Assembly (NCBI GenBank): GCA_032718475.1
Contig: JAUCBJ010003873.1
Location: 1-53,844, forward strand
Direction: 5' to 3'
Source: Nemertoderma westbladi
Taxonomy: Eukaryota > Animalia > Xenacoelomorpha
DNA: 53,844 nucleotides
The position numbers and the translations under genes are program-made. The notes under the pieces were generated by a model that saw nothing but the letters and a program-made list of their open reading frames with translations, had not been told where the DNA came from and did not search any database. This document shows, piece by piece, positions 13,658 to 53,844 of the stretch (positions within the stretch are counted from its first letter, which is position 1; each line of letters opens with the position of its first letter).

Positions 13658-14451
13658 GATACTTATGCAGTATAATGTATCCCAGTAATCCCGAATATAT
13701 ATCAGTATATGTAGGATATAAATAAATTCCTAACAACCAAGAACTTAATAAAAAATACTTCCATACCCGAAATGTCATCAAGATGGTGCACAATACTGCT
13801 ATACCGGGACCTGTAGGCCTACAACTATTTATCAGTTTACCTGATTTCAGTCTATCAGTCTTGTTCTGTTCGGCTAGAATCGTTGAAACTTACAATACTA
13901 CAGTATAATATACATAATTATACATAACTTACAAACTAACAATACCTACTGTAGTGCTGGAGATAATAATTAATGAATTGCCGTAAAATCATGTAGTTCC
14001 GCCCCTCAACCTATTATCTGGTTCTGATTGTCTGATATACTGTACGGTACTGTGAAGTGAAGTGTGAACTGGTTTTCGTATTATTATTTTGTATTTTATA
14101 CAGTTGGACAGTGACCTGATTGCCCGGCAGTCCTGAAGTCTGCCTAGCGTTCTACATTACATTACAGACTACTGTATAGCTTGTGGGATGGGGTAGGCCA
14201 AGCCTTTTTTGTATTTGATTTGTTATTTTGTTTACTGGGTTAAGGTTCAGTTAGTTGCTGAGGAGTTACAGGGAAGTGGATACTGACCAACTACCGTATT
14301 GAAGCTTTATATTTTATTTATATTTTACTTGTGTATTATTGACCGGACCCTTATTACCTCAGCTATTTGTGACCGGACCCATAATCCTGTAACATGTCTT
14401 AACTTTCGTTTATTGTTTTGGTTACCACCAAAATTTATTGCTATTTTGGTT

Positions 14452-14825
14452 GCTTATTGTTGTTCGTTGTTGCTCATTGTTGCTCGTTGTTGTACTTTAT
14501 TATTGCTCGTCTGCTCGTTGTTGCTCATTTGTTGCTCATTGTTGCTCGTTGTTGCTCGTTGTTGCTCATTGTTGGTCATTGTTAGATTGTTGGTCATTGT
14601 TGTTCGTTGTTGTACTTTATTATTGCTCGTTGTTGCTCATTGTTGCTCGTTGTTGCTCATTGTTGTTCGTTGTTGCTCATTGTTACTCGTTGTTGTACTT
14701 AATTATTGCTCGTTGTTGCTCATTATTGCTCGTTGTTGCTCATTGATGCACGTTGTTGCTTGTTTTTGCACATTGTTGCTCGTTGTTACTCATTGTTGCT
14801 CGTTTTTGGTCATTGTTGCACGTTG
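14452..14825 (-). repeat. Inverted short arm of the same decamer satellite
   Basis: ttgctcattgttgctcgttgttgtactttattattgctc is the reverse complement of the left-arm units. Confidence 0.92.
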
Positions 14826-17159: not shown

Positions 17160-17578
17160 CTACCGGTAGCTACAATTTCTAAATTTGGTGAATTTAGGCC
17201 TATCTGTGCTGATTGCTGATTTAGGCTACTGGGCTAGGCTAATTTAGGTAGGCCTAGTCCAGTAGTCAGTAGTCCTGGGTCAGTATCTGGGCAGCTGGGC
17301 TAGGCTGCTAGGCTTAGGCCTATACAGTCTGACAGTTATAGCAGTATTGGCTAACTTCAGTACCGGTACTTAGGCCTATTCCAGTTTCCAGTATTCTGAT
17401 ATTCTGTATTCAGTGATTGTATGGTATTTCAGTCAGCCTGTCAGTCAACAGGTCAGTCTTTCAGTATTTCTGTATTTAGCTCTGTACCTCGGTACCGGTA
17501 TCTGGCAATCAGGGTATGGAATTTATAAGTCAGTCTGTACGTCAGACAGTACCTAGCTGGGCTAGCTGCTGAGCTGTG

Positions 17579-18836
17579 TGTACGCGCTTTTGAAGACCTT
17601 TAGCAGTTTAACCTGCCAAAATTTATATGTCTTTTGGTTTATAAATAGACTTTAGAAGATGACAAATATTTAATACCAATAAACACAACATTAGCAGAAG
17701 CCAGCCTAGTGCGCGTCCATTCACCCGCTGGATATACCCGGGAGACTGGATTCTGAGGGCTTAGATTATTATTGCAGTGTAAGCTTACTGTATTGTATTA
17801 TTCGATTGATCGTTAATAAATTTCTGACTAATATTATTTACTTTCGGGAAATATTAACAGTTCCTTTAGGACGTGGCGCTCTATCTAGGTAAACAGAGAT
17901 ATGACTTATACTAATCACAACGGCAAGTCGGTAAGGCTTATGATTCACGTATGAGGCGCATTCTTTAGGAAATGCTTAGTTATCAGTCACAATCATGCAC
18001 ACTACCGGTAACACACAATACTGCTCACTAATTTGCCGACCGTCAATGAATTTTATCATATATAAAGAGAACAGCAACGAATCATGTAGTGCTTACCAAA
18101 TAGCATTAAGTTCACTACAAACCACAACAATATAAGTCGCAATCGCTATATATAACCCGTCTCTCTAACCTGTAGTGTATCAAGAAAATTGGGAAATTTG
18201 GGTTCTTTATATATGTTCTCCAAATAATATTCGACCAACTAATACAAAATATGACAACAGTAAAAGCATTAAGACGGTAGGTTAAGATATGATATGAATG
18301 ATATGTTATGACAAGATATGCACTGATAACAGTTATACGCTCTATAATTTAAGCCTACTAATGTTTCTTCTAAAGTATGAAACGAATTGACTCTAGAGCC
18401 GGTGTTCCTGGCCTAGATAGCAACAACACAACAGTATCACCAAAAAACAGTAAGACTGAACACTCCCAGGATGATCGGCCGAATACCTCCACATCGACAG
18501 AAAAAATCGCTCTGATTGGCTTAAGCCAAACAAAGAACCATGTGTCCAATGGCTGTTCCCATGTCAGCAACCAGCTGTTAGATGTCGTAATATGAATCAT
18601 CAAGGCTAAGCTGTGTAAAGGTATTTGGTGCATTGCCGGTTTTTTGCCTTACCATGTCCGCCAAAACACGTATATAGAAGAATGACTTTTATGTCCGTTA
18701 AAACACCTATAACGGTACCTTGCGGGCAAGGGGAATATATATATAGTTAGAGAGCCTTTTAGAGTATTCCAGCGCCTGGGGGGAAACTGGATTGCGAAGC
18801 AAAAGGGGCCAGTTATATCCCACATAAGCTTTTACA
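17579..18836 (-). repeat. 3' LTR of element A (1258 bp)
   Basis: Direct repeat of 28883-30141; by eye 2 substitutions and one A-run indel. Confidence 0.96.
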
Positions 18837-18844
18837 CCGCTCCC
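18837..18844 (-). other. Short polypurine tract (GGGAGCGG) abutting the 3' LTR
   Basis: Minus strand reads ..ttttctGGGAGCGG then TGTAAAAGC (LTR start). Confidence 0.6.
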
Positions 18845-18914
18845 AGAAAATGGGATTTAAGTCTATAAAATATACAAAATCACAGTTTCTAATATACGTA
18901 AATACTCTAAACAG

Positions 18915-20366
18915 TTAGTCTTTCTTGCGCGGACGGCGTTTACGCAGTTTTTTAAAGCTAGCCAGAGTCCTTTTCTCTTTGGGGCGAGCCACTTTACAAG
19001 GAGGGCTATAACTCCTGGGTGAAGGGTGCAATATGATTGCATCAGAGGGTGTAGGATTATGGTCGGTGTATCCGCCAGTCGAAGTACCGGGTTGATTGAC
19101 ATCAACGTCCGGGGAGAGGGGTCTAATGGCTTTGAGAGCTCGTTTCAAGACAGCCGCTCTTACGGGTCCTTTACGAGTGGTCTGAACGAGGGCCGTGGGT
19201 GGACCATAGGCAGTTAGAAACCTCCGGGGTTTTATGGTTCTTTCCAACTCGCGTTCGCGGGCTCGGTATTCGTAAGGCCGTCGATATACTTCCTGTAACT
19301 CGGGGTGTGAGTTAACAAACAAGTCTCCATAGTCCGGATCCTGACGGATATAATTGATTAAGTTATAGGAATGAAGGTCGCTAGGATTAACACTCCTGAG
19401 AAATTTGCGTACGAATTTGGTTGAAATACATTCTCCGACGCGCTTCAGTAGCTCGTAACTTGATATGCGTGATTTCTGTTCAACCGAAGCGAATAGATAA
19501 GGATGGAACGCATAAACTCCTTCGTAAGCGCGTCCGGGATAATAGCGATGGCGCGAATCACAATGTAAATCAGCGTTCGCTTCACAAGCTCTGATGTAAC
19601 GTAGTGTGATCATTTCATCTACGCTTTCCAAATCATGATTAAAAGGGCAATCGAAACTGGCGTGTCCCTTTAGTTGACAATGGTGACATTGCGTCATAAA
19701 TTGAGGGCAAACCGCAAAAATATGCAAGTTATTGAGTCTGCAATATGCGCAATAAATTTCCATCGCCGGTTGTTCGTGGAAATAGGAACAGCGGACGACG
19801 TTTGTGTCCATGGGCGTAACATGGTCTCTCGATGCGCATAACCGACAACGTTGCCGAGAAACATAGTTGGCATGGCGATAATTGTACGCAGTGAGACACT
19901 GTGGACCTTGATACCATTCTAGGATGTAATCGTTGTCGCTGTTCCGGGCGCGATAGGCTGAATCTCCTCAGATTCTAGGCATATTGGTTCGTCTTCCCAG
20001 TCTGTTACGAATAGAATTTTCGTGATCTATTCTCGGTTTATCGTTACGACTCCGCTGGGTATGATATTTAAATAGAACCATTTCCCTTTCGGTGTCTACA
20101 TCGTCCGTATCATGTAAATCGATAGGATGGCCGGTAGTTAGGAAGTCCATATACGCACTATTACGATGCGTATAGCGAGCGGTGAATTTTCGATAGTCCA
20201 ATTCACGCGTAAGTTGCTCTTGGGACATCGGCGGTTCGATATAACGACCATCGTCCTCCGTAATGGTTGGATCGGTTTCACCGCGTATCAAGCTATCCAC
20301 AAATGCTTGTAAAGGTAGAGTATATCGCTCCCTGATACCAAGATCATCTTCTATCAACTCCGTCAT
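18915..20366 (-). pseudogene. Accessory ORF3 of element A: about 483 codons, zinc knuckles and a basic tail, one in-frame TGA at 19968-19970
   Basis: The 132-aa and 298-aa ORFs share a frame (starts 555 nt apart) and the linker is open (GDSAYRARNSDNDYILEWYQGPQCLTAYNYRHANYVSRQRCRLCASRDHVTP); motifs CAYCRLNNLHIFAVC and CHHCQLKGHASFDC; tail KKLRKRRPRKKD. Confidence 0.75.
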
Positions 20367-21190
20367 ATCTGCTATCTGAGTTTATTAATATCGAAATGAG
20401 TTTATGTTTAGGCGAGCCGACGTCACTGCCTACCTCTCTTTGCCCCCGGACAGTGGGATTCTCAGCGCCGATGTACCGTCGTCGAGGTGTTTACGCCAAC
20501 ATGTAGCAACAGCACGACAACGATAACCGGCACAAGTCACTCCACTGTCCGTCCCAAAGGCTTGAATCCACTTTAGGTTCTTTCTATAGGAGAGTTGGGC
20601 TACTTTCACAATTGCGACTAGCTACTGTAAACATACTTTAGCAGTAACATTCACCTATAAACGCACAAATTCCACACAACTGTCACCAATTGTACACATA
20701 CAGGCCATTTGTCCGTTAGTCAGTGCCTTCCAGAATGTCACGTTATTACTGTGTATCCTTGGATACTAACAGTGTGCTATGTATTCTCTATGCTATGCAA
20801 TGGGACAAGCTTTCTGTTGTTCTTTTAACTTGCTTCTAATTCTAGCGTGGGTGTTGCTATGGTGACATTATGGAAAGCTAGCGGTAGAATTAGGGTAATT
20901 CTCATGCATACAGATCTGGGATGCTATTTAATAATAATTCTTTAATTGTCAATATCCTCTTTATGCATGATTTTATTAATTTTATCGGCTATTGACTATT
21001 ATTTATGTTGGAGATTCTCGCACTCTAATACACTCAATAGGATGAATCTCCGCTCCCATGATCTATTAATTAATGGAATTTTGGGAATGTTATAAATTGC
21101 ACAAAATGACAATTTATAAAATTCATTTAAAATATGAATTTAAATTTATTCCCGTGAATTTTATTATTTGATGTTAAAATTGACACAATT

Positions 21191-21452
21191 TTTATTCCAG
21201 AGCATGTCTGGGGACTGAGGATCCTTAATTCTATAAAATTGCCTTTTAAGAGTATCGGTAAGTGCTGCGATATCTTAATTGACTAGAAATGTTAAAGGAT
21301 CTGAATTTTACAGATTTTAATAAATATTAAATTAATATTTAAGATGGACACCGATTTATTCCAGAACTTGTCTGGGGACGTTAACCACTGATTCTAGAAT
21401 TTGTCTTTCAAGTATATCGGTGGGTGCCGCGATATCTTAATCGACTAGAATT
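21191..21452. repeat. Diverged about 100-bp duplication (period 164) between the pol remnant and ORF3
   Basis: tttattccaga..tgtctggggac...gcgatatcttaat.gactagaa at 21191-21290 and 21355-21452. Confidence 0.75.
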
Positions 21453-22002
21453 ACAGATGGTCAAAAGGTTTAACATATTTATTTGCGTTTTACGCTACTG
21501 TTAGAGGGACATCACGCTACTATATGTATTATTTAATATAAGGTAGAAGAGCAATATCGCACGAAGCAATGTCAGTGTGAAGAGGCAAGTCGTTTCCAAG
21601 GTCTACCCAGAGCTTGGTTTAGCCGAGACACGAGGATCTGAACTTTGCATTCCTAATACTCTGCCTACCAATAATACTTGAATATAGTAGTGGCTTTATT
21701 GTACTTTAATAAGTACGGACATTTCATCTTACTGTAGTCACGTATTTATAATATGATACGGACAGTAAGGAAAGAGAAAAAATAATTATTTCTCGCCGTC
21801 GCACTAAATATATATTATAAGTAATTACGTACGTAATAAACACTAATATATTGCACTAATCTACTAAATAATCACTAAAATAACATTCTACTAAATAAAA
21901 TTAAAGGAAACGATTATAATAAAATTACATAATAATACATACATAAATATAAAATAAAAACAAATATAAAATGATATAGTCACACGCCCACTCCATATGT
22001 TA

Positions 22003-25000
22003 TTACGTTATGGAGTCCCTAGATATTTGTCGGATTAGGGAAGTGGTCGTAGGAAGAGTATCTTGCCTTCCATAGTTTCCGGACAGTTTTCGGTCTCTTT
22101 CCAGTAAACATAAACGACTAGCTGGGCGATTGAGTTGTTGTGTTACTTTCTCCGCTCCCTTGGCCTGTCTAATCTTCACCGGGTTAAGATGAGGAGGCCA
22201 TTCTTCTTCTTCTTTACTTAAGAAGTCGGATCCACCTAACCAGCCTGGAGTATCTATCAGTTCTTGAGGAGTTGCTCCTCTGGAAGCGATGTCGGCTGGA
22301 TTAATCGTCCCAAGGCAATGTCTCCATTGATCTACATTGGAGTTAATATCGTCATTATCTGAGGAGTATGGTGTTTCCTCAGTTGGATCGTCCACATCAC
22401 TGCTCTCCACTTCCCATTCCTTTACTTGGTATACCTGTTGTTGAGGTAATCTCTCTTTGAGAGTTCTACGGGAAGGGCCAGTGAAGTACCAACCTACTCT
22501 AGTTCTTACCGCATAGGTTTGTAGTGGCTGCGGTTGAGCAGGCCGTTTCTCCAATGTCTCGAGCGCCTCATGCGCGTTTTGGCCGATGAGTATTTGCACT
22601 CCAGGATAATCTGTCTGGAATCGAGGTATCTTAAGATGTTGGATGCTCTCATCCTCGTCCCAATTATAAAGGTCTGCTTGGGTAGTAGCGAAGTTCTTTA
22701 TAGCCACCATTTTTACCGACCTTATACCTTGTGCTCCTAATTTATCCTGGGGGGTGGACAACACACCTACATAGTAATCTGCCGTTAGGGTAGATTTCCA
22801 AACCTGCATAATTCCTGACATATTCAATTTAGTCCGGAATTTGGGTTGTCCAGCAAAGATATCTTCGGCTAGTTCTTGATCGATGAATGATTCCTGTGCT
22901 GCCGGAGTCAAGGAGGGCGTTCTCTGATCGGTAACTTTTGTTAGGACCATGAACTCTTACCTGCACTACAGGAAATTCTCTGATTCCTACGTTGGAAGTT
23001 GGAGCTTTCCAAGATGGTTGTCTGGCAAAAGTAGTTGGGGGGAACTCATTGTCGGTGTCCTTTTCATAAGTAAGTGCTCGATACACTGAGGTATTTATTA
23101 GGTAACAGGATTCGTTGGCGTCGGAGAATTCGTCAGTATAGAATCCTTCCATCTCAGACTCTTGATCAGTGTCATTTACATCACTGAATTGGACATGTAG
23201 TTCGGGCTCACTTACCTGACTCGGGTTGTCTCGTTCGAACTCACTGTGTAACAAGATGTGATGTTTCGCGCCACACTTTGCACACTTTACGTCGGAGTAA
23301 CAGGTTCGCCGTTGGTGTCCTGATCTGAGGCAATTATAGCATAACCGCTTATTCCACAGGACTGTACGTCTGTCTACAAGGGATTTCTTTAGAAATTCAG
23401 CACACGCACTCAAACGGTGGGGCCCGTCGCACAGTGTACATTTTGGTTTGATGTTACTCACTTTACCTTGGGTAACTTGATGCACTCTCGTTCTTTCTTC
23501 GGGCTTTCTTCCGTGAATTCTCTTAGGAGACGTAGGAGGAGTTGTTGTTACCTGTTCTCTCCTGTCACTGGTTCGAGACTTGTATTTACTTACGTCTTTA
23601 TAGGTCTTGTTGTCATAGTAAGATTTTGCTGTGTCTTTCCCGCTGTCCTCTTCTTGAAAAGCTTGGCTTTCGCCGTCGTCAGTATAACACACCGGTATTA
23701 TCCTTCTCCTAGAAACGGGTTTCTCACTTACCTTATTTTCCGATGTTTTCTCTCTGGACTGCTTTATGAGTTGTAATTTTACTTCACTATCTAAGAAGGA
23801 CATGAGATCAGCCATGGTAGGGCTTCGTCGTTGCTGTTCATTCATATACAACACTTTCTTGTCCCAGCGTGTACATACTCCACCCTTTGGTAAAGTAGAG
23901 ACTACGGCTCCAATAACCATGGAACTCTGATATTCATGAGACTTACCTAACCAGTCCAATTGTCTACAGATTTCCTGAATCTCATCGGAAAACTCTATAA
24001 TACCGCTACTAAGGAAGTTTCGGGGGGCTACTAATTTTGCATACAAATACTTAGCTATGTTATCCTTGTTACCATACCTGATGTTTAATGTATCCCAAAC
24101 TTGTCTTAATCCTTCTGGATGTCCAATAAACTTTAACGCCATTAACTTGGGAGGTCCTTCCAAGCACTTGATGAGGAACCTAAGTTTCTCTCCGTTAGAT
24201 AGTACAGAGTTCTGTATGCTATCTTTGTAATATTCATTGAAAGGTAACCATTTCATCTCATCTCCATTGAATTTAACGATCTCTCCCACTTTGACCGCTT
24301 GGCAGGCTTCTGTTCTAGCCATCTGACGCGTAAAGCTTTCTTGGGCCATCGTGTTATTTAATATCGAATTATCGGTATATAAATTTCTCGGATCATTGTC
24401 AGGTCTATAGGGAATATCATTAATAACAGGTCTATAATCACCCTTAATAGGGTTTGCTATAGGAGTTTCTACTTCACTAGCAGTATAGATGCGTGTAGGC
24501 ATGTAGGCTCCACACCTTCCGCATGTAATACTTCAGACCTAACAGGTTGACACAATGTTACAGGGGGTATTGGTATGCCTTTTTGTATATTGACTAATTT
24601 GTCGCGTTCCAGTGCGATACTTTGCTGCACTTCTTGCAATTCTGCCCTACCTTCCCTTACTGTTCCCTTAAGCTGGTGGACAGTCTCCTGCATCTGTCCG
24701 AGCAGGAGGTTCATCCCCCGCCGTCCCTCCTCTACCCACTCGACCGCCGAAGCGGGAGTCGCCAACATTGTAGCGGGCCGACGCTGGACGACGGGAGACA
24801 AATCTTTGATTTCTCTCTCTGCTATCAGGACAGGGATATTCTCCTGGACTGTTCTATCGGGTACAGGCAGTGTAGTACTATGTAAAGGGAATTTAGAGTT
24901 AAGCTCTGGAAGTACAGGGGTCTCTAACACAGAAGTGACTTTGGGAACGACAGGCCTAATTATTTCAGGCTCATCAACTATTGTAGGGAGTCTTTTGACC

Positions 25001-26657
25001 TGAATAGTTTGGTCTGTGGGTTCCGTACTACCTAAGTCTGTGCTAGCTAGCTGTCTTCTAACAGCTGGGGGCAAATCAGGCAATTTGTGACGGTGAGATG
25101 TTTTTCTACGCCTGCTTAGACGAGATCTATTTCCTCCGCCTTCAGGATCGGTGGTTTCGCTTTCTTCCGATGATGTGTATCCCTGGCGTTTGGGAGTAGA
25201 TTTTCTCATCATCTGCATGTGACTAGCAGTTAACTGTTTATTTATGTTGTCTTGCGTCTCTTGCAGATTTTCCAACTCCAGTTGGGTAGTCTCCTCAGAC
25301 GCTCTCCGTTCTGCTTCTGCCACTGCCTTTGCTGCCTTTCTTTCCACTTCTGCTTCTGCCATTGCCGCTGCTACTGCTGCTGTCTTTCTTTCCACTTCTG
25401 CTTCTGCCATTGCCGCTGCCGCTGCTGCTGCCTTTCGGTCCACTTCTGCTTCTGCCATTACCGCTGCTACTGCTGCCGCCTTTCGTTCCTCAATCCGTCT
25501 TTTCTTTACTTGTTCTTCTTGGACTCTAGTGAGGCGGAGTTTTTCATCAAATTCAGCTTGGTTAGCAGCTAACATTTCAGCATCGATTGAGTCTAACACA
25601 CGCTGGGTTCCTTCACTATTAGGGGAAAGTCCAGACAGCCGTCTCCTCAACTCTTCGTCTCCTAGGAATCGCGATAGTCAGACAGATAAATGTCTATGGC
25701 GTCTCTCGTTCGTGGTCTCTCTGCGGTCTCTTCGCCTTCCACTCGAGAAAGGGTGGCATCGGTTGGTTCTTCATAGGTTAGTCTCTCAGACAGCTGGGAT
25801 TTCCACTGGTCCGTTTCTTGTACTTTGAGACCTACCCGCTGGAACCAAGTTTTGACAGCAACCTGCAGCGACGTGTCCTGTCTTCTTTTGGAAGTTTCCT
25901 CAAAAGCTGATAGGATTAGTCGAATGCGTAGGGTTCTTTCGCGTACTTGGTATAGCAGTTCTTCCTGCTCTTGAGGTCCTTGGGGTTGTCGAAACAGTTG
26001 TTCTTCTAATCGCTCTAAGGTGCTGAAGAATCCCTGCACATATCCTGCTGCCGACCTCTTCCAAACAGCTGGATCCATCGTATCTTTAGCCACTCCCATC
26101 CTGTGTATATCTTCCCAAGTAGCCTCGGACAGATCTAACGGGAGTCCGGGTCCGGGAAAGTTCCATTGTGACTCGACAATAGACCTCAATTCTTCCCTGG
26201 CGTATCCCGCATAATTATCTTGGGTCGCTCGCTTATTTCTCGCCCAATCGGCTTGATGTTCCTCCACCGCAATCAATATAGTAGTTAGCACTGCGGCAGG
26301 AAGGGTGAGAAGGGGGTCCGAGTAGGCTTTAGCCGCCATCTGCAATCCGCGTTCGGGGGTCAGCTCGACAGTATCCGAATTACTGGAGCTATCGGATCGC
26401 TGGGAACAAGTTTCTTGACTAGGCTGTTGCTGCTGTGGGACAGCTGGTTCCTGGTTCCGTTTGACTTGGGCCCGAGTGCCGATGATAGACCTACGGTGTT
26501 GGATTAGCTTAGGGTCTGATACTTCTACTGGAGGGATGACCTTTCTTTCAGTAGGAGGTGAGCTGAACTCCTTTCTTAATCGCTCCATACTCCTATCTGT
26601 GTCACAGATGGTTGTATCGATTAGACTGTCTGATAGGTTTTGCTGGGTGTCAGACAT
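22003..26657 (-). pseudogene. Element A gag-protease-(deleted pol) polyprotein, broken by three frameshifts
   Basis: ORFs of 331, 393, 557 and 315 aa are colinear with element B; IVKFNGDEMKWLPF..LSNGEKLRFL (DUF1759-like), CTLCDGPHRLSAC, CYNCLRSGHQRRTC, CAKCGAKHHILLH, ALLDSGS; frameshifts near 25670, 24500 and 22900-22930. Confidence 0.9.
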
Positions 26658-28016
26658 GTTTAGCTATACAGTTGAATGCTTACTGCTATAGTTACAGTTA
26701 AAGCAAGTCTAGTAATTCAGTATGACCGTTGGCTTAGTACCGGTAATTTATTGCAGTATATTAGAATACCGGTATGCACTTATAATTTATATAAGTATTG
26801 TAAACTAGGTTTGTCACAGAGTACCGGTATATAAATTTAGCACAAATATATAAATATATAATAGGCCTATCGTGAATACCGGTATGCAGCTGACACTTAT
26901 AGTATATAAGTATAATTCTGGACTAGAATTAATTACAGAGTACCGGTATGATTTCAGCCTAAATTTATCGAATAAATATAATAAGCCTATTGTAAATACC
27001 GGTATGTCAATTATTTTAAAATAATTGAATTTCTGAATGTTAGGGGTTACTTGGTTACTTTACTTACTTTATTACCGTTATTTAAGCAGTAGTCCAACTG
27101 ATATGGAGACCTAGTTGTTGTATGGCAGGCCTACTATTTATAAATCGTTTGAGTTGATTTATAATATATATATACCCGTTTAAAAGGGGTTTTGTCAATA
27201 TTTGAAATAAATTTTATTATTTCCGGGGGAGTCACTACACAGAAGCTGTGCGCTCTCAGTGAAGTGCTACCTATGGGACACTAAAACAGATAATTCTAAT
27301 TTACCTAAGTTACTTAATACTACAAATTGCTTACGATACGGGTGAGATTAAATCTCTAATTAAACACAACAAAATATTACGTACGAATTTTTAGGGTAAT
27401 TTTACAGGAAGTCTACAAACCAGTCTAACAAAGGGTTAGAATTCGGTTTATTACAACGGACAGGGTACTACGGTATTTGAAAATAATAAGTAGTAGTAAA
27501 TATATTGCACTGTCCAGATAGGAAAATACCACCGCCTGACGACCTATAGCCGTATCGCTATAGGTACTACGTTATGTATCACGGAGTGTTCCTACCTAGA
27601 AGTTAATTACCGCGGACTACCAGATCCAACGTGCCTATTAACCACTTTACAACACAAATATACTGCCTACACACTAATTACTTTCGGAAAGCACTGTACA
27701 CTAAACCCTAAATTAGGTACAAGTACTGGTACAACAAATAATCAGTAGTTAAATATACTTGAACAGTTAAAAGAACCACGGCATCTGCTGGAGTGACCGA
27801 AGCACAAAGTCACCAGTCTTTTCCTACGCCAAGCAGCCCGTGTAGTACCGGGGTTAATTTAACTATAACGGTATGTGTAACAAACACAATTACTGTAGGA
27901 ATAAACTTGGGGACATGAATGTTGCGAATAATCGCATAAACTCTGAATAATAAATATTACGCTACCCGTACAGAATACTCAAACAAAATACAAACCAAAC
28001 GCTGGCAGACTACCAC

Positions 28017-28466
28017 CAAGCCTAAATAAACTACAGTATGTGCAGATTCCAAAATGGTTAGTTAGTATGCGTTCTAACACGGTAGTACGACTTATTCTTT
28101 AAGAGGGGATTGACCTTACAGCTATGGCTGCCCCAACTTACTAACTGGCACTCTATCGGACAAACTCTACACACGCAGCAATCTCTTCAGACCTAATAAT
28201 AGCTAGACAACAATCCAGCCTACAAAATATCTGAGTAATAACTATTACGGTACCTGAACAGACCACACAAACAAACACAGGCCAAAACGTTGGCAGAATA
28301 CTGTCAAGCCTAAATAAACTACAGTATGTGCAGATTCCAAAATGGTTAGTTAGTATGCGTTCTAACACGGTAGTACGACTTATTCTTTAAGAGGGGATTG
28401 ACCTTACAGCTATGGCTGCCCCAACTTACTAACTGGCACTCTATCGGACAAACTCTACACACGCAG
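28017..28466. repeat. Tandem duplication (period 288 bp) in the 5' leader of element A
   Basis: 28017-28178 appears identical to 28305-28466. Confidence 0.9.
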
Positions 28467-28871
28467 TAATCTCTCCAAACCCAACAACAATCCGACAACA
28501 GTCCGGCCTACAATTATCTGAACAATCTGAGCAGACTTACACGTCTTCAGCTCAATATTAACTTACATGTAAATAAAACTGACAGAAATAAGTAAGCTCC
28601 AAAAGAAACAAGGGGTGACAGTCCCTAATCTCTTAAACAGCCTACCGGTATGCAATAATCAAATCGAATAATACTAATGTACTTATACTGGAAGTACCGG
28701 TTAGGACAGTTGGGCCTACGGACCTACAGAAGTACCGGTTCTGGCAGTTGGACCTACGGACCTACAGCAGTACCGGTTCTGGCAGTTGGGCCTACTGACC
28801 TACAGAAGTACCGGTTCAGGTTTACCGGTCGACAGGTACTTTCAACTTTATTGCTTACTGCAATAAAGTCA

Positions 28872-28882
28872 ATAACTGTTAT
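28872..28882 (-). other. Non-tRNA primer-binding site of element A (ATAACAGTTAT)
   Basis: Directly follows the 5' LTR end (..CGCGTACA); no TGG; perfectly complementary to LTR positions 29630-29640 on the same strand. Confidence 0.7.
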
Positions 28883-30141
28883 TGTACGCGCTTTTGAAGA
28901 CCTTTAGCAGTTTAACCTGCCAAAATTTATATGTCTTTTGGTTTATAAATAGACTTTAGAAGATGACAAATATTTAATACCAATAAACACAACATTAGCA
29001 GAAGCCAGCCTAGTGCGCGTCCATTCACCCGCTGGATATACCCGGGAGACTGGATTCTGAGGGCTTAGATTATTATTGCAGTGTAAGCTTACTGTATTGT
29101 ATTATTCGATTGATCGTTAATAAATTTCTGACTAATATTATTTACTTTCGGGAAATATTAACAGTTCCTTTAGGACGTGGCGCTCTATCTAGGTAAACAG
29201 AGATATGACTTATACTAATCACAACGGCAAGTCGGTAAGGCTTATGATTCACGTATGAGGCGCATTCTTTAGGAAATGCTTAGTTATCAGTCACAATCAT
29301 GCACACTACCGGTAACACACAATACTGCTCACTAATTTGCCGACCGTCAATGAATTTTATCATATATAAAGAGAACAGCAACGAATCATGTAGTGCTTAC
29401 CAAATAGCATTAAGTTCACTACAAACCACAACAATATAAGTCGCAATCGCTATATATAACCCGTCTCTCTAACCTGTAGTGTATCAAGAAAATTGGGAAA
29501 TTTGGGTTCTTTATATATGTTCTCCAAATAATATTCGACCAACTAATACAAAATATGACAACAGTAAAAGCATTAAGACGGTAGGTTAAGATATGATATG
29601 AATGATATGTTATGACAAGATATGCACTGATAACAGTTATACGCTCTATAATTTAAGCCTACTAATGTTTCTTCTAAAGTATGAAACGAATTGACTCTAG
29701 AGCCGGTGTTCCTGGCCTAGATAGCAACAACACAACAGTATCACCAAAAAAACAGTAAGACTGAACACTCCCAGTATGATCGGCCGAATACCTCCACATC
29801 GACAGAAAAAATCGCTCTGATTGGCTTAAGCCAAACAAAGAACCATGTGTCCAATGGCTGTTCCCATGTCAGCAACCAGCTGTTAGATGTCGTAATATGA
29901 ATCATCAAGGCTAAGCTGTGTAAAGGTATTTGGTGCATTGCCGGTTTTTTGCCTTACCATGTCCGCCAAAACACGTATATAGAAGAATGACTTTTATGTC
30001 CGTTAAAACACCTATAACGGTACCTTGCGGGCAAGGGGAATATATATATAGTTAGAGAGCCTTTTAGAGTATTCCAGCGCCTGGGGGGAAACTGGATTGC
30101 GAAGCAAAAGGGGCCAGTTATATCCCACAGAAGCTTTTACA
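28883..30141 (-). repeat. 5' LTR of element A (1259 bp)
   Basis: Minus strand TGTAAAAGCTT...CGCGTACA; repeat of 17579-18836. Confidence 0.96.
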
Positions 30142-31611
30142 CTGTGGCTGTGTGCGTGCAGGTGCTGAGGTGTGGTGTGTGGTGGGGTGGGCCCATTTTC
30201 CGAGTAGGGCCTAATAAAAATTAAGACTGAAAATGGCAGAATGGTAGGCCTACCTACTGACCTACCGGTACGGGTACAGTATCAGCCCGTAGTGGAATAA
30301 TTACAAAATGTGCAGCTGGATGTGCTCCAGACAGCCAGATATTATGCAGTTATGAAAATCGCGCCGCGACATACTGCAGTAACGGTACCGAGGCTGTAGC
30401 CTGTGTACTGCAGTACTGGCTGACTGGTGTCTGGGTGTAGGTCTATTATGTAATCATTCTACCAGTTCATAGTTCTTCAACAATTTCAGCAACCACTAGA
30501 TCATTCGAGCAATGAATTAATTCTGATTCACAATTCATAAAATTTGGCTGAATTTCACGTGGCTGCGTGGGCTGGTGGCCGAGCCGCACTATTGAAAAGT
30601 TTTATTTCCGGCGCCGAACGCAGCGCCGGCCGCCGGGTGCAAAAAATCGTACGCCGGCCCTTCAAATCTGCAGTGGGCTGTCTGTTATAAAAATCAAATA
30701 TCAAATCAGCCTGTATTCACTGAAATACGGTATGATATCGCATTCGAATAGGATGCCATAACAAAGTAATAGATATAGAGATACTGTACCAAAATAAAAG
30801 AATGAGGACTTGGATATTTTATTATTTTAATCTTTATATATATTATTTCTTGCCTGTCAAATAATTTACCGCAATGAATTATTGTGAGAACATTTAATAT
30901 TTAAACATGTAGCCCCCTTAAACAGGGAGACTGTTTAACTGATGGTGTCTAAAAGAGTAGTCTGTTTCTTCTAATACGAGGACATCAACGGAGAGCTGTG
31001 ATATGTTGAGATTAATGTAACAAAATTTACCTTCTTTACTTATCAGGACCTATATTCACAATGTATGTATACCTTATCTAATTCAAAACAAATAAGTTGT
31101 ACAACTTTACACAAAGATGAATAAGTATTATTATTAGAAATGCATAGAAAATATAATCAATAATACATATGGGGGGGGGGGGGGGGGGGGGGGCTGGACG
31201 CAATAAATATTCATCCCTCTTTCAGTGGAAATTGGACGCAAATAACAGCTGATAACTCCCTATTGTTTTGGTTTAAATAAAGTGCCACACTGCCTCTGTA
31301 ACCTGCTCCTTTCCAAAAATTGAGAATTTAACATTGAGGCGGGATATTAATTCGCCAAGATGGGATTTGCGTCCAGTTTCCCCCCTGTCTCCAATAATTA
31401 CATATGGGCGGGGTGTATATAGGAGGGAGATACTGCTACGGGCTCCAGGTCTGTTATCTCACTTTCATAGATTTCGCTCTCTAGAGGCAGACTGGAAAAC
31501 TGCAGACCGATTACCGACCCCACAAAGACACAGGATGTGGGCGAGCCAAGAAGTAAGGTGAGCCTTAGCGCAGGGTCACCATTCATGAACCTGTTCGATC
31601 TGTCGCTCCGT

Positions 31612-33343: not shown

Positions 33344-34471
33344 TTATTGGAGGTTAATGAGACAGGCATCCAGATGAGAGTTAATATCATTAGCTGGAAC
33401 CGGTTTCCGGCAGGAAGGGCATGCCACCTCGTTGTCGTAATGAATAGCGTAGCTAGTGGAGGCTACCGGCTCGTACGAGGTCGAGAAGGAATTGTTGCTA
33501 TGGTTGAAATCCAATGTGGTCGACAATAGGAGATTGTTTGATGGGGATTGTTGGGATGTAGCGAAGGGATTGTTTGATGGGGATTGTTGGGATGTAGCAA
33601 AGGGATTGTTTGATGGGGATTGTTGGGATGTAGCGAAGGGATTGTTTGATGGGGATTGTTGGGATGTAGCGAAGGGATTGTTTGATGGGGATTGTTGGGA
33701 TGTAACGAAGGGATCTGGTCGGATTGGTGCAATGGGACTCGATGTGTTGAATGCGATGGGACTGATGGAACTGAACCGGGTTGGTGGGGACGGGACGCAG
33801 ACGGGACTGGGGGTCGTCGGGGACCAGTTGAACTCATCCTGCGGGTCGGCGACCCTGGGGGGAGTTCCTACGACGCCCGGTAGGGAGTGCCCCTCCGTAA
33901 CCCCTTGGGACCATTTACTGTACCCTTTTCCACCCCCAACGTTGTACCCCTTACCCAGCTGCGCGTTACCATTGACAACCGGCGACGTTAACACGTTACG
34001 AGCGGCCGAACTATCGCCTAGCAGCGAGAAACCCCGCCCAGAAAAGGGAACAAACGATTTAGCCTCGTCTACATTCTCCTTGTTATCCGTCGTGACTTCA
34101 TTAACTTCCAACATTTCATCACAGAATTCATCTTCATTTTCCACAGACTGGATATTATTATTACTAGAAACTTTGTTTCCCACGGTTATCCAGCCATCCA
34201 ATGACTTATTATTATTCGCCGTCGACTTATTTTTATTCTTTCTCGCTGTTTTAACGGGGATTTTATTTAATTTAACTTTATTTTTGTTAGTGAAGGCCTC
34301 GGGTTCGGCTACCTTTCTGAATGTTCCGCTACACACCGCGCGATGGCGCCCCCACCACGTGTCTCGGGGACTCGGGGCCCGGTTCATGGCGCGTCGGACG
34401 TACCCGAAGTACGGTTTGTTCTGTTGGCAGACCCCGTCGCAGCGCCACACGTGGGTCCGGTAGTGGTCCAC
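33344..34471 (-). CDS. SPRTN: SPRTN coding exon 3 (Zn-binding subdomain, PIP-like, SHP, UBZ4)
   Basis: Acceptor ttttggttctag|GTG; VDHYRTHVWRCDGVCQQNKPYFGYVRRAMNRAPS..WWGRHRAVCSGTFRKVAEPE; SHP FVPFSGRGFSL; UBZ CPSCRKPVPANDINSHLDAC. Confidence 0.93.
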   Translation of the reverse strand: MDHYRTHVWRCDGVCQQNKPYFGYVRRAMNRAPSPRDTWWGRHRAVCSGTFRKVAEPEAFTNKNKVKLNKIPVKTARKNKNKSTANNNKSLDGWITVGNKVSSNNNIQSVENEDEFCDEMLEVNEVTTDNKENVDEAKSFVPFSGRGFSLLGDSSAARNVLTSPVVNGNAQLGKGYNVGGGKGYSKWSQGVTEGHSLPGVVGTPPRVADPQDEFNWSPTTPSPVCVPSPPTRFSSISPIAFNTSSPIAPIRPDPFVTSQQSPSNNPFATSQQSPSNNPFATSQQSPSNNPFATSQQSPSNNPFATSQQSPSNNLLLSTTLDFNHSNNSFSTSYEPVASTSYAIHYDNEVACPSCRKPVPANDINSHLDACLINLQ

Positions 34472-44958: not shown

Positions 44959-46168
44959 TGTAAAAGCTTTTGTGGGATAACTGATTCGTTTGCCTTGTTG
45001 GCCAGTTCCCCCCCCGGTCGCTAGAATACTCTAAAGGGGATCTATAGTTAAAATAGTGCAAGCTACCAGCTTATTGGCTGATTTGCTGTACGCAGGTATC
45101 TGGGCTCTGTTTAATCGGCCAACCAGCCTAGAAAGGTTGCGTCATAGCCTTGTTTTTGTATCTCCCAATAGAATTTGAGTTAGCGTTGATTTTGACCTAT
45201 CACAGAGCTACTGAACTGAAATTTTCCTATCTCACTGCTCTTTCTCTGTGTTGAACGGGAGCTTCGTGGAATAAGGGTAGTTGGTATCCTCGTATAGAGC
45301 AGTAGTCACGAGTTTTTCAAAGCCACGAAAGAACGGCTTTGTAGTGTTTTGTGCTTTCTGCTTTTTAGCTCAACACTAGTAGGTTTAATTATAAGGACAT
45401 ATATCCTTTAACTCATGGAATCACTGCAATTTCGTAATCACTGCTGACACACGGCTTTTAATAACTGCTGAAACTGCTAAAATTACCTGCTCAATCAATA
45501 CTGTATATTGCTATTTGTTGTCGGTTATTCATTATATTTGTTGATGAATTATTATATTGGAATAACGAGAAATAACCCCGACACCCAATATTCTTGATAT
45601 ACCGAAGGTAAGAGAGAAAGGTTACCAATAACGATTGTGACTTATGTTAAAGTGGTTTGAAGTGAATCTAATGTTATTTGATAGACCCTACATGAGTCAG
45701 TCTGTGTTCCTTTTATATGTGACTAAAATCAGTGAAGATTGGCAGATTAGTGTGCAGTATTGTGCAGCATTGTGTACGAGTGAGTCTGTTAAAGAAGCAT
45801 TTCCTAAAGAATGCGCCATATATGTGAATTATAATTAAGCCATATCGTTGTGAGTAGTTTAAGTCATAACTCTGTTTATATAAATAAAGCGCCACGTCCT
45901 AAAGGAACTGTTAATATTCCCGAAGGTGAATAATATTGTCAGAGATTATATAATACTGTCAGTCGAATAATACATTAGGCTTACATAGCAATAAAATTAA
46001 ACCGTCGAACCCAATCTCCCGGGAATATCCAGCGGGTGAATGATCGCGCACAGATTGGTTTCGACTAGTGTAGTGAATCAAATACTTGTCATAGGCTAAA
46101 AAGCGATTTAATATCTAGAAGACATTAATTTGGCGGGTTAAACTGCCAAAGGTCTGAAAGCGCGAACA
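44959..46168 (+). repeat. 5' LTR of element B (1210 bp)
   Basis: TGTAAAAGCTTTTGTGGGATA...AAAGCGCGAACA; boundaries inferred from homology with the element A LTR termini. Confidence 0.88.
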
Positions 46169-46180
46169 TTAAAGGATATA
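46169..46180 (+). other. Non-tRNA primer-binding site of element B (TTAAAGGATATA)
   Basis: Directly follows the LTR end; exact reverse complement of TATATCCTTTAA at 45400-45411. Confidence 0.75.
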
Positions 46181-47050: not shown

Positions 47051-48426
47051 GTCAGTGTTCGGTCTGCATTTTGTTTGAGTAGTTTGTACGCGTAGCGTAA
47101 TATTTATTATTCAGAGTTTATGCGATTATTCGCAACATTCATTCCCCAAGCTTGTTCCTACAGTAATTGTGTTTGTTATACATACCGCTATAGTTAAATT
47201 AACCCCGGTACTACACGGGCTGCTTGGCGTAGGTAAAGACTGGTGATTTTGTGCATCGGTCACTCCAGCAGATGCCGTGGTTCTTTTAGCTGTTCAAGTA
47301 TATTTAACTACTGATTATCTGTTGTACAAGTACTCGTACCTAATTTAGGGTTTAGTGTACAGTACTTTCCGAAGTAATTAGTGTAGACATTATATTTGTG
47401 TTGTAAAGTGGTTGATAGGCACGTTCGATTAGCTCTATTAACTTCTAGGTAGGAACACTCCGTGATACATAACGTAGAACCTATAGCGATACGGTTATAG
47501 GTCGTCAGGCGGTGGTATTTTTCTATCTGGACAACGCAGTGTATTTACTACTACTTATTATTTCAAATACCGCAGTACCCTGTCCGTTGTAATAACCAGA
47601 ATTCTAACCCTTTGTTAGGCTGGTTTGTAGACTTCTTGTAAAATTACCCTGAAAATTCGTATTTTGCGTTTTTGTAAATTTTTGTGTTTATTTAGAGATT
47701 GTAATCTCACCCGAATTGTACGTAATTTGTAGTATTAAGTAACTTAGGTAAATTAGAATCATTTATTTTAGTGTCCTGTACGTAACACTTCACTGAAAGC
47801 GTACCGCTTTGTGTAGTGATTACCCCAGAAATAATAACATTTATTTCAAACATTGACTAAACCCATTAAAACGGGTATATATATATTATAAATAAAGTCT
47901 AACGATTTATAAATAGTAGGCCTACCATATAACAATTAGGTCTCAATATCAGTTGGACTACTGCTTAAATAACGGTAATAAAGTAAGTTAAAGTAACCAA
48001 GTAACCCTAAAGTTCAGAAATTCAATTATTCTAAAATAATTGACATACCGGTATTTACAATAGGCTTATTATATTTATTTCTATAAATTTTAGGTTGAAA
48101 TCATACCGGTATTCTGTAATTAATTCTAGTCTGTAATTATACTTATATATATACACTATAAGTGTAAACTGCATACCGGTATCCACGATAGGCCTATTAT
48201 ATATTTATATATATTTGTGCTAAAATTATACCGGTATTCGGTGATAAACCTAGTCTGTAATAATAGTTATATATACTATAAGCATACCGGTATTCTAATA
48301 TATTATATATCACGCTACACTGAGTAGCAGTACCGGTAATTAATTACTAGGCTAGCAGTTAATACTGAGTTACTAGACTTGCTCAGACTGTGATACAGCA
48401 GTAGACATTCAACTGTATACATAAAC

Positions 48427-51400
48427 ATGTCTGATACTAAGCAGAACCTGTCAGACAGTATATTAGATGTAACTATCTGCGACTCAGATAGAGGCGTAGA
48501 ACCACCTAGTCGTAAGTTCAGTTCACCTCCCACTGTGAGGAAAGTCATCCCTCCAGTAGTAATAACAGAACCTAGGCTAGTCCAACATCGTAGGTCTATC
48601 ATAGGCACCCGAGCTCAAGTCAAGCGGGACCAAGAAGCAGCGGAACAGCAACAACCCGCGAGTCAAGAACTTATTCCTCAGCGGCCCAGCAGCTCCAGTA
48701 GTGAGGATACTGTAGAGCTGACACCCGAGCGCGGAGCAGAGATGACGGATGCGGTTTATACGGATCCCCTTCTCATCCTTCCTGCAGCCGTACTCACTAG
48801 GTTATTGATCGCGGTGGAAGAACACCAGATCGATTGGGCGAGAAGTCAACGGTCAACTAGAGATAGTTACGCGGGATACACGAGTGAAGAACTGAAGTCT
48901 ATTGTCGAGTCGCAATGGAACTTCCCCGGACCCGGACTCCCGTTTGATTTATCAGAAGCTGCCTGGGAAGACATACACTGGATGGGAGTAGCCAAGGAAA
49001 CCATCGATCCAGCTGTGTGGAAGAGGTCCGCAGCCGGATACGCACAGGGATTCTTCAGCTCTATGGAGCGAGTAAAAGAACAACTGTTTCAACAACCTCA
49101 AGGACCTCAAGAGCAGGGATCGCTGCTTTATCAAGTTAGGGAAAGAATTCTACGAATCAGGCTAATCTTATCGGCCTTTGAGGAGGCTTCTAAAAGAAGA
49201 CAAGACACGTCGTTGCAAGTTGCCGTAAAGACTTGGTTTCAACGGGTGAGTCGCCAGGTTCAAGGAGCAGCTCAGTGGAAAGCTCAGTTGGAGGAGTGCT
49301 CAACCCATGGAGAATCAACAGACGCTACTTTTTCCCAAGTGGAAAGTGAAGCGACGGCAGAGAAACCGCATAAGAGGGATGCCATTGACATCTATCTGTC
49401 AGACTATCAACGTTTTTTAGGTAATGACGAGTTGAGGAGAAGGTTAGAGGGACTTAGCCCTAATAGTGAAGGAACCAAGCTTGTGTTGGATGCCATCGAT
49501 GTGGAAATGAGGGCTGCGAATCAGGCTAAATTTGATGAACAACACTGACACGAGTCCAAGAAGAACAAGTAAAGAAAAAACGTATAGAAGACAGAAAGAA
49601 AGCAGCAGTGGTAGCTGCAGAAGCAGAAAGAAAAGCGGCAGCGGCAGAGGCAGCGGCAGAGGCAAAGGCGGCAGAGGCAGCGGCAGAGGCAAAAGCGGCA
49701 GCGGCAGAGGCAAAGGCGGCAGAGGCAGCGGCAGAGGCAAAGGCGGCAGAGGCAGCGGCAGAAGCAAAAGCGGCCGAAGCTGAAAGAAAGGCGGCAGAGG
49801 CAGTGGCAGAAGCAGAACGGAGAGCGACTGAAGAAACCACCCAATTAGAATTAGAAAACATTCAGGAGAATCAAGACTGCATAAATAAACAGTTAACAGC
49901 TAGTAATATGCAGATGATGAATCGATCTACTCCCAAAAGGCAGGGATATACATCATCTGAGGAAGGCGATACCACCGATACTGAAGGCAAAGGAAATAGA
50001 TCTCGTCTAAGCAGACGTAAAAGAACATTCCACCGTCAGAAATTGCCTGATTTGCCTCCAGCTGTTAGAAAGCAACTAAATAGCACCAACTTAGGCAGTA
50101 CAGAACCCACAGACCAAATAATTAAAATAGAAAGACTCCCTACAATAGTAGATGAGCCTGAAATAATTAGGCCTGTTCTCGAAATCACCCCTTCGGTGAT
50201 AGACACACCTGTGCTCCCTGAAACTACCTCTAAATTCCCTCTGCATAGCACTAAGCTACCTGTGCCCCGTAGAACTGCCCCAGAGACAGTTCAAGTCCTG
50301 GGTCCCAAGCGAAATATTCATAATTTGTCGCCCGTTGTCCATCGTCCGCCCGCTACAACGTTGGCGACTCCCGCTTCGGCGGTCGAATGGGTGGACGAGG
50401 GACGGCGGGGGATGGATATCCTGCTCGGGCAGATGCAGGAGACTGTCCAGCAATTCAAGGGCACAGTAAGGGAAAGTAGACTAGAGTTGCAAGAAGTGCA
50501 GCAAAGTATCGCGCTAGAGCGCGATAAATTAGTAAATACTCAAAGAGGTATACCACCACCCTCTGTAACAATGTGTCAACCTGTTAGGTCTGAAGTATCT
50601 CATGCGCAAGGTATGGAGCCTACACGCATATATACTGCTAGCGAAGTAGAAACTCCTATAGTGAACCCTATTAAGGGTAATTATAGACCTGTTGATAATG
50701 ACATTCCCTATAGAACTGATCATAATCCGAGAAATTTATATACCGATAACTCGATATTAAATAACACGATGGCCCAAGAAAGTTTTACGCGTCAAATGGC
50801 TAGAACCGAAGCCCGGCAAGCGGTAAAGGTGGGAGAGATCGTCAAGTTCAATGGAGATGAGATGAAATGGTTACCTTTTAATGAATATTACAAAGATAAC
50901 ATACAGAACTCTGTACTATCTAATGGAGAAAAACTTAGATACCTCATCGAGTGCTTGGAAGGATCTCCCAAGTTAATGGCGTTAAAGTTTATTGGACATC
51001 CAGACGGATTAAGACAAGTTTGGGATACACTAAACATCAGGTATGGTAATAGGAATAATATCGCTGGGTACTTATATGCAAAGTTAGTAGCGCCCCGAAA
51101 GTTTATTAGTAGTGGAATTATCGAGTTTTCCGATGAGATCCAGGAGATCTGCAGACAATTAGATTGGCTAGGTAAGTCTCATGAGTATCAGAACACTATG
51201 GTTATTAGAGCAGTGGCTTCTACTTTACCGAAAGGTGGAGTAGGTACACGCTGGGATAAGAAAGTGTTATATATGATGGAACAACAATGACGAGACCCTA
51301 CCATGGCTGATCTCATGTCATTCCTAGATGGAGAAGTGAAATTACAGCTCCTGAAACTGTCCAGAGAGAAGACACCGGAAAACAAGGTAAGTGAAAAACC

Positions 51401-53844
51401 CGTCTCTAGGAGAAAGGTAACACCAGTATGTTATACCGATGACGGCGAAAGCCAGACTTCTCAAGGAGAAGATAGCGGGAAGGACACGGATAGATCTTAT
51501 TACGTAAATAAAATGCCTAAAGATCAGGTAAGTAAATTCAAGTCTCGAGCAAATGACAGGAGAGAACAGGTAAGAAAAACTCCTCCCACGTCTCCCAAGA
51601 GAATTCAGGTGAGAAAGCCCGAAGAAAAGGCAAGTGTACACAATGTGACTCAGAATAAGGTAAGTAACATCAAACCGAAATGTGCGCTGTGTGACGGGAC
51701 CCACTATTTGAATAGGTGTGATGAATTTCTAAAGAAATCATTAACAGAGAGACGCGAAGTCATGTGGGATAAGCGGTTATGTTATAATTGCCTCCGACAA
51801 GGACACCAACGGCGAACCTGTTTCTCTGACATAAGGTGTGCAAAGTGTGGTGCGAAACATCATATCTTGTTGCACGCTGAATTCGATCGAAATAGTCCGA
51901 ATCAGGTGAGTGATTCCGAGTTACATGTCCAATTCAGTGATGTGAACGACACTGATCAATCTGAGATGGAAGGATTCTATACAGACGAGTTCTCCGACGA
52001 AAACGAATCCTGTTACATGATAAATACCGCAGTGTATCGAGCACTCACATATGAAAAAGATACAGATAACGACTTTACTCTAACTACTTCTGAGCGACAA
52101 CCATCTTGGAAAGAGCCATCTTCCAATGTAGGGATCCGAGAGTTTCCTGTGGTGCAAGTAAGGGTTCACGGACCTGAGAGGAGTTATGTAGTGAACGCCC
52201 TCCTTGACTCCGGTAGTACAGGAACATTCATCGACAAAGAGCTAGCCGGAGATATATTTGCTGGACAACCCAAGTTCCAAACTAAGCTCAACATGTCAGG
52301 CATTATGCAAGTTTGGAAATCTACAATAACAGCTGATTATTATGTAGGAGCGTTGTCCACCCCCCAGGACGAACTAGGAGAACACAGCATAAGGTCAGTG
52401 AAAATGGTGGCTATAAAGAACTTCGCTACTACTCAAGCAGACCTTTATAATTGGGACGAGGATGAGAGCATCCAACATCTTAACATACCTCGATTCCAGA
52501 CTGATTATCCTGGAGTGCAAATACTCATCGGCCAAAACGCGCATGAGGCGCTGGAGACGTTAGAGAAACGGCCTGCTCAACCGCAGCCCCTACAGACCTA
52601 TGCGGTAAGAACTAGAGTAGGTTGGTACTTTACTGGCCCTTCCCGTAGAACACTCAGAGAAAGACTACCGCCAGAGAGCGTATGCCAGGTGAGTGAATGG
52701 GAAGATGATACCAGTGAGGGAGACAACTCAACTGAGGGAATTCCATACTCCTCAGATAATGACGACGTTCACCAGCTTTTTGATGAGGAGAATACCATCG
52801 ATCTCCTTAAGGAAAACGAGGCTTGGCAAAACCAAGTGAACTTATGTCAACTTCTCTATCCATCTGAACGAGAAGCTTATAACGACGAGTTAAATGACGT
52901 CATTGAGCGTTGCAATGCCAAGACTCGAGATGAACATGCTGTACGATTCTTTACGCAAGAGGCGGTAGAGCCCAATTCCTACGATAAAGCCTTGTCGGTG
53001 GAAGAGGAAAGGGCCAAGCAGATCCAAGAGACAACTACACGTTTCCTCAAAGATCAAGGTAGGTATGAAGTCGGTTTACCTTTCCGCAAGAGAGAACCGA
53101 AGTTCATCAATAACAGACCTTTGGCGGAAAAAAGAATCGCGCAACTCCATCGACGCCTTACGGCTAATTCTTCAGCTAAAGCAATGTATCAAACACAGCT
53201 GGAAAAATTTATTAGTAAGGGATACGCGGAGAGAGTACCGGAAGAAACACCTGTGACTGAAAGAACGTATTACTTAACTCACCATTACGTTCCTAAACCC
53301 GGTAAACCACACGAAGTGAGAGTAGTGTTTGATGGCTCCGCTCTTTACATGGGTCAATCCCTTAACTCTGAATTGTTACCCGGACCCAACTTGCTTCAAT
53401 CTTTGTTGGGAATTCTTTTAAGATTGAGACAATATTCGATTGCTTTCGCCTCCGATATAGAAGGCATGTTCTTACAAGTCAAGGTGTTAGATAGGGATCG
53501 AGATAGTCTACGATTTCTGTGGTGGCCCGAAGGAGATCTCAACCAGAAACCGGTGGAGTACTGGATGACCATCCAGGCCTTTGGGATAATCTCAAGCCCT
53601 TCCAACGCCTGTTCGGTAGTGCGTACTACTGCAGAGGACAACCGAGAGGCATTCTCTAAGGAAGTGATCGACAACATCAAGAGAGACATATACATGGACG
53701 ACAATCTGAAGTCCCTCCCATCAGTTGAGGAAGCCATTGAGGTCGCTAAGGGAACGGTAGAGTGCTTAAAAAGAGGTGGATTTCGATTAACCAAATTCAC
53801 CAGCAACTCCCGTGAGTTTCTGGAGTCGATCCCTGCGGAAGATC
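48427..53844 (+). pseudogene. Element B gag-pol (Gag, protease, RT); frameshift near 49545 and TGA at 51288-51290
   Basis: 373-aa and 560-aa ORFs, then a frame apparently open to the window end (ALLDSGSTGTFID; YMDD near 53691-53702); QQ*RDPTMAD versus QQRRSPTMAD in element A indicates CGA>TGA. Confidence 0.9.

Follow-up and report, generated by a model that had tools for sequence, protein, structure and literature searches.

A primer-binding site complementary to the element's own LTR suggests self-primed reverse transcription in BEL/Pao retrotransposons of Nemertoderma westbladi

Genomic context and structure of the two elements

The window, by which we mean the whole 53,844-nt stretch of the Nemertoderma westbladi genome analysed here, contains two related LTR retrotransposons: element A, with both LTRs, on the minus strand, and element B, which runs off the window, on the plus strand. 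Their main features, in window coordinates, are as follows.

30142..30146, minus strand: 5-bp target-site duplication CACAG of A (second copy at 17574-17578)
28883..30141, minus strand: 5′ LTR of A, 1259 bp, TG...CA, with 3 differences from the 3′ LTR
22003..26663, minus strand: gag (DUF1759, zinc knuckles) and protease of A, spread over several frames
18915..20381, minus strand: additional Cys/His-rich ORFs of A in sense orientation (137 and 350 aa), after the pol remnant and before the 3′ LTR
18837..18844, minus strand: polypurine-tract position of A, adjoining the 3′ LTR
17579..18836, minus strand: 3′ LTR of A, 1258 bp
44959..46168, plus strand: 5′ LTR of B, 1210 bp, with the 3′ LTR beyond the window
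48394..53844, plus strand: gag, protease and RT (YMDD) of B, running off the window; gag stop codon at 51288-51290

The two LTRs of A are 99.76% identical. A deletion near 22349 fuses the gag/protease part of this element to the C-terminal end of RNase H; Pfam searches and comparison with an intact relative (L006) found no RT or integrase core in A, and most of RNase H is lost as well. Lacking RT and integrase, A would be primed in trans. The gag-protease-RT region of B, on the other hand, is collinear with L006, its RNase H and integrase lying beyond the window. The two elements are ~82% identical across 7.3 kb.

As to the extra ORFs of A, the 350-aa one has no Pfam match and its Atlas matches to zinc-knuckle proteins are all below 0.9, so that a zinc-knuckle kinship of these ORFs is a weak lead. 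The long leaders of both elements contain two tandem copies of a unit of ~290 bp (27942-28525 in A, 46541-47115 in B). An ORF of non-LTR-type RT (RVT_1, E 5e-20) at 43706-44980 on the plus strand ends just past its FADD motif at the start of the B LTR (44959); a LINE seems to have been the target of this insertion of B.

Judged by the type of their gag and pol, A and B are BEL/Pao elements. Pfam places a DUF1759 gag in both, the RT of B is 39-48% identical to that of BEL/Pao polyproteins from corals, bivalves, echinoderms and fish, and the RT relatives of B carry PF05380. Together with TG...CA LTRs, these are features of the Belpaoviridae and of the Sinbad group of de la Chaux and Wagner; TG...CA termini, a polypurine tract and a target-site duplication are all present in A, the 3′ end of B being beyond the window. 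All six consensus families that contain the DIEGMF word of B are Sinbad (6/6; PMC3118150, supplements S6 and S4), a motif look-up that provides a lead towards affiliation of B with the Sinbad superfamily. In an RT tree made by a quick method, without named references, B fell on a long branch and received no placement. For the Belpaoviridae, whose replication it calls poorly understood, the ICTV gives a PBS of 18 nt complementary to the 3′ end of tRNA-Arg or tRNA-Gly (PMC8742986). Here A, B and the 11 relatives described below depart from the family description, since none of them has the expected 18-nt tRNA-Arg/Gly site.

Primer-binding positions and their complements in the LTR

In sense orientation the 5′ LTR of A (30141-28883) terminates in CGCGTACA, and the sequence that directly follows recurs as an exact complement inside the same LTR. 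The features concerned, with their counterparts in B, are listed here.

28872..28882, minus strand: primer-binding position of A, 11 nt, ATAACAGTTAT, flush with the LTR CA, no TGG
29630..29640, minus strand: candidate self-primer of A (LTR nt 502-512), exactly complementary to the PBS
18326..18336, minus strand: copy of the candidate primer of A in the 3′ LTR
29658..29664, minus strand: TAGTAGG anchor in A, common to B, 24 nt before the primer site
46169..46180, plus strand: primer-binding position of B, 11-12 nt, TTAAAGGATAT(A), no TGG
45400/45401-45411, plus strand: candidate self-primer of B, LTR nt 442/443-453, exact 12-bp complement of the B PBS

The absence of TGG after the 5′ LTR of A, noted in the original prediction, was confirmed over the first 40 nt, and the same is true of B. 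We likewise recovered the predicted complements of the A site at 29640-29630 and 18336-18326, and the pairing does end exactly at the LTR boundary, its other edge coming after 11 nt. The prediction had carried the caveat that this 11-mer is nearly palindromic. That caveat applies to A, whose site is an odd palindrome, the central base alone distinguishing complement from direct copy, so that A taken alone is weak; it does not extend to B, whose site is not palindromic.

The comparison with B, which had been put forward as the strengthening evidence, proved to be so: B has a distinct 11-mer that differs from that of A at 4 of 11 positions, and all four changes are mirrored at the matching position of its own LTR. 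The B primer site starts 24 nt after its own TAGTAGG (45377-45383), just as in A; this anchor may be a promoter element, a splice-acceptor region or an RNA arm. When matches had to be anchored to the LTR end, the LTR of A held not even a 6-nt complement to the B site, and that of B held 6 nt at most to the A site. Background 11-mers matched the A LTR in 77 and the B LTR in 53 of 91,260 cases, and permuted 11-mers matched in 267 (A) and 91 (B) of 200,000. The mirroring would be templated, so the four A-B changes do not amount to four independent compensatory events.

The block containing anchor and primer site also stands out in a set of contigs (X1) that end or diverge at both edges of the 40-nt segment 45373-45413 (plus strand), one of them with an extra A after 45392; these suggest a third family with which only this module is shared.

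Eleven relatives of elements A and B

An RT-alignment scan of prokaryote genome contigs yielded 18 loci (L003-L020), which are animal BEL/Pao DNA contaminating MAGs, and 12 further stretches were fetched afterwards. A readable 5′ LTR end was available in 11 relatives (L003, L004, L005, L006, L009, L010, L011, L014, L018, L021 and L025). Eight of the 18 loci were left out with an unreadable 5′ LTR end (L007, L012, L013, L015, L016, L017, L019 and L020). Among the fetched stretches, L025 and the earlier L008 are one element, L021 entered the comparison, L023 was taken as a tRNA-primed control, and L022, L024 and L026-L032 were set aside for want of a usable LTR pair. The branch of A and B is long, with RT identity of at most 51%, and the relatives are therefore distant.

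To all 13 elements we applied a single rule, namely a perfect 11-mer complementary to the element's own LTR, starting 0-8 nt after that LTR, the complement being either contiguous or formed across a GT-AG junction. Twelve of the 13 follow it and the remaining one, L004, reaches 10/11, which means that 10 of the 11 relatives have a perfect own-LTR complement of at least 11 nt. The complement is contiguous in A, B and L011; in the other 10 elements it arises only once a GT-AG intron is removed. None of the 13 has a tRNA-type site, and TGG directly after the LTR is absent from 11/11 relatives. Shuffled leaders passed the rule in 1-26 of 3000 cases, the two tRNA-primed controls gave no match, and only 2 of 156 cross-element comparisons matched, both between L005 and L025, whose PBS is identical. 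An acceptor filter applied at the outset was stricter and was relaxed once the L025 data had been seen; under the stricter filter 8/10 pass, BEL-to-BEL cross matches number 0/90 and leader windows reaching 9 nt 0/60.

The sites themselves vary widely, the 13 representing 12 distinct 11-mers with a median of 5/11 positions alike. In the sisters L006 and L009 three exon-1 letters differ, and the PBSs change accordingly. The site starts 0-1 nt past the LTR end in 10/13 elements, with gaps of 4, 5 and 8 nt in three relatives, two of which (L003 and L018) have uncertain LTR ends. The PBS-LTR complementarity is thus real, far beyond chance and common to a wide clade.

The need to remove a GT-AG intron before the complement appears points to the element's own RNA as the primer, an arrangement for which tRNA priming cannot account; a PBS that spells the exon junction of its own LTR would be best explained by an element RNA primer copied into the PBS. 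In the 10 spliced relatives 3-9 nt of the primer precede the splice donor, and canonical TATA boxes lie 97-240 nt upstream in L003, L006, L009 and L010; both observations argue for an internal primer in the spliced relatives.

Several observations made during these scans stand apart from the comparison. GTDB species-representative MAGs contain, as host contamination, complete BEL/Pao elements of animals, several of them with ORFs intact and LTRs identical, and G001 gave 28 matches. A second LTR element is nested in the BEL/Pao element L008/L025 (10302-15021 of L025) and served as a control; from its motif we take it to have a half-tRNA-Met-type PBS and to be likely a copia element. Matches from a loose scan (5 in L016 and 1 extra in L021) were discarded as chance, as were two matches to a metagenome DNA pattern, which were chance 20-mers with no further similarity around them. 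A search of viral contigs with one protein and one alignment returned no relatives.

A proposed mechanism of self-priming

Taking B and the relatives into account, we consider it likely, with good confidence, that A and B start minus-strand DNA with their own RNA and not with a tRNA. Self-primed reverse transcription, as originally predicted for A, is in this respect partly supported: it is priming by the element's own RNA that gains from B and from the 11 relatives, splice-junction complements included.

The full explanation that we favour, which is probable on the sequence comparisons, is that the 11-mer of the 5′ LTR primes minus-strand DNA in cis. The 5′ LTR copy of the 11-mer would fold onto the PBS. 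Where the duplex adjoins the LTR end, its edge would be cut by a nuclease, probably RT's own RNase H by analogy with Tf1, to free a 3′-OH, which RT would extend into U5. Plus-strand synthesis would then copy the primer, so that the PBS would be rewritten in each cycle. For A, the RT, RNase H and integrase would be supplied by an intact relative. Rewriting in each cycle would explain both the mirrored changes between A and B and the fact that the PBSs of the relatives spell a splice junction.

A broader proposal, plausible if slightly doubtful, is that a wide marine BEL/Pao clade primes with an internal 11-nt piece of RNA assembled by the host spliceosome at an exon junction in the LTR, A and B being intron-less. 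This mode would be distinct from that of Tf1 and independently evolved, with splicing marking the copy that serves as primer and the unspliced copy serving as template.

RNA folding, transcription start and the source of the primer

Folding models bear on where the RNA of A and B would have to begin. With a model RNA starting at the site, the primer helix is part of the MFE structure, with mean pair probabilities of 0.92 (A) and 0.84 (B); with a start 12 nt upstream the mean probability is 0.77, and with a start 35 nt upstream or at LTR nt 120 it drops to 0.00-0.02. In the model the helix therefore forms only with an RNA start within ~12 nt of the site, which argues for the Tf1 geometry. Predicted structures around the site are the following.

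29015..29023, minus strand: internal LTR arm of A whose predicted partner is the terminal 9 nt of the LTR, pretzel-like and weak
28902..28925, minus strand: predicted stem-loop near the LTR end of A, predicted in B as well
28844..28870, minus strand: predicted leader hairpin directly 3′ of the A PBS, predicted in B as well

The duplex at the LTR end recurs at the equivalent position of both elements, one A-U pair being U-A instead, and equally strong duplexes occurred in 7/60 and 3/60 shuffles. For the leader duplex the corresponding figures were 1/60 in A and 14/60 in B, where the best partner is located elsewhere. A second helix upstream of the 11-mer, spotted by eye, was rejected (37/500 shuffles; 110/500 without sisters). 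Scans with Rfam (17500-30300, no match) and ARAGORN (whole window, no tRNA) were negative.

The promoter region was also inspected. Neither A nor B has a canonical TATA box ~30 nt ahead of its primer site; both have a TATA-like word at -10 to -11 of the site, and an initiator-like TCAGT directly follows the site in A. In the search for an intron upstream of the primer, an acceptor-like TAG was found at -33/-34 in A and B, and B had no strong donor and 0 junctions. The X1 contigs, which come from one run and whose RNA nature is a guess, yielded neither start sites nor joints on B, and non-canonical joints alone on A; their gap just upstream of the A site is not counted as evidence. On these models we hold tentatively, and with somewhat more doubt than belief, that the 11-mer may form the 5′ end of the RNA of A and B as it does in Tf1.

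The TATA-like word and TCAGT also fit a start just downstream of the site, in which case the 11-mer would be left only in the 3′ copy. They thereby favour the strongest alternative, on which LTR-derived RNA still primes, its source being the 3′ LTR copy or, acting in trans, a short LTR transcript that has been spliced or a small RNA processed from such a transcript. The relatives offer it further support: the primer spans the intron in 7/8 long-LTR relatives examined and, in 6 of these 7, AATAAA follows 0-31 nt and the LTR end 44-149 nt after the primer, so that short LTR-only RNAs could carry it. Retention of the intron in the DNA of both LTRs would moreover imply that one RNA copy is spliced and the other unspliced. 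Against a primer from the 3′ copy or in trans stand the cis helix, which forms readily in models whose RNA begins at the site or shortly before it, and the constant 11-nt length, which agrees with Tf1; we regard this alternative as unlikely.

Quite improbable, in our judgement, is that the pairing serves RNA structure or regulation (packaging, dimerisation, or control of polyadenylation or splicing) in an element that uses another primer. The further conserved hairpins predicted around the site would suit such a role. A structural helix would, however, be expected to tolerate G-U pairs and changes of length, whereas 12/13 elements have perfect Watson-Crick pairing of a single length, at the exact primer position and ending at the LTR boundary, and all 13 have no tRNA-type site in its stead.

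Priming by a tRNA fragment or another small RNA of the host, with an incidental LTR match, could appeal to the ICTV assignment of an 18-nt PBS for tRNA-Arg or tRNA-Gly to the Belpaoviridae (PMC8742986) and to half-tRNA priming without TGG, described in the available part of PMC6317226; the likely copia element nested in L025 has, by its motif, a site of this type. Such priming is very improbable given 12 distinct 11-mers in 13 elements, each fitting only its own LTR, 10 of them across a splice junction, and sites that change between sister families.

Comparison with known priming systems

Priming in cis from the element's own 11-mer, the reading we prefer, would have its nearest parallel in Tf1, in which the initial 11 bases in the RNA anneal to the PBS and an RNase H cut between bases 11 and 12 frees the primer (available part of PMC7175516), within a pretzel structure of three duplexes (available part of PMC10085805). 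The portions available of PMC6317226 and PMC4600332 describe self-priming for Tf1/sushi elements and predict it for Tcn1 and for the TAR lineage of copia. A and B resemble the Tf1 group in having a non-tRNA PBS that adjoins the LTR CA and an 11-nt complementary LTR segment (compared with the available parts of PMC7175516, PMC10085805, PMC4600332 and PMC6317226). The differences are that the primer site of A and B lies 747-757 nt from the LTR end, and that in 10/11 relatives the primer would be built by splicing. The Tf1 pretzel is weakly echoed, with an LTR-end duplex in both elements and a good leader duplex in A only, while a primer at the RNA 5′ end, a feature of Tf1, is only a candidate geometry in A and B. 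Tf1 and Tf2 of S. pombe, Tj1, Tosmo, Tf1/sushi and plant Tcn1 are Ty3/gypsy chromoviruses, whereas A and B are BEL/Pao. By analogy, A and B likely work like Tf1 without belonging to the Tf1 group.

Within BEL/Pao, Cer7 of C. elegans is reported to encode its own tRNA-like primer. This would be another element-encoded primer in the group, but a tRNA mimic in the internal region, in contrast to the 11-nt LTR segment of A and B. We found no paper on a self-encoded primer in Cer7.

Outside Tf1/sushi, self-priming has been predicted from PBS-LTR complementarity in the TAR lineage (Houba, Osr-1), plant Ty1/copia elements (available part of PMC6317226), which differ from A and B in being copia elements of plants and in resting on prediction only. 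Our literature search, outside which fell slash spellings, most subscription papers and Repbase reports, returned no report of self-priming in BEL/Pao. Self-priming is mentioned for groups other than BEL/Pao only in the available parts of PMC3601003, PMC6934838 and PMC5443660; the main texts of PMC554778, PMC3118150 and PMC6238403 contain neither 'PBS' nor 'tRNA', and PMC9094657 and PMC11042837 held nothing usable on self-priming.

Implications and other features of the window

BEL/Pao is one of the main groups of animal LTR retrotransposons. Self-priming here, if true, would have arisen again outside Ty3/gypsy and copia, and such elements would escape control by tRNA supply and by 3′ tRNA fragments and would be missed by annotation tools that demand a tRNA PBS. 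A splice-built primer, if true, would link the onset of reverse transcription directly with splicing by the host. Since the rule predicts the exact primer of each family, it is easy to test.

Elsewhere the window contains a large array with a unit of ~10 bp (11000-15000), including an inverted block near 14580-14840, and two host genes, an LSM12-like ORF (4952-5641, minus strand) and a SPRTN-like exon (33344-34471, minus strand).
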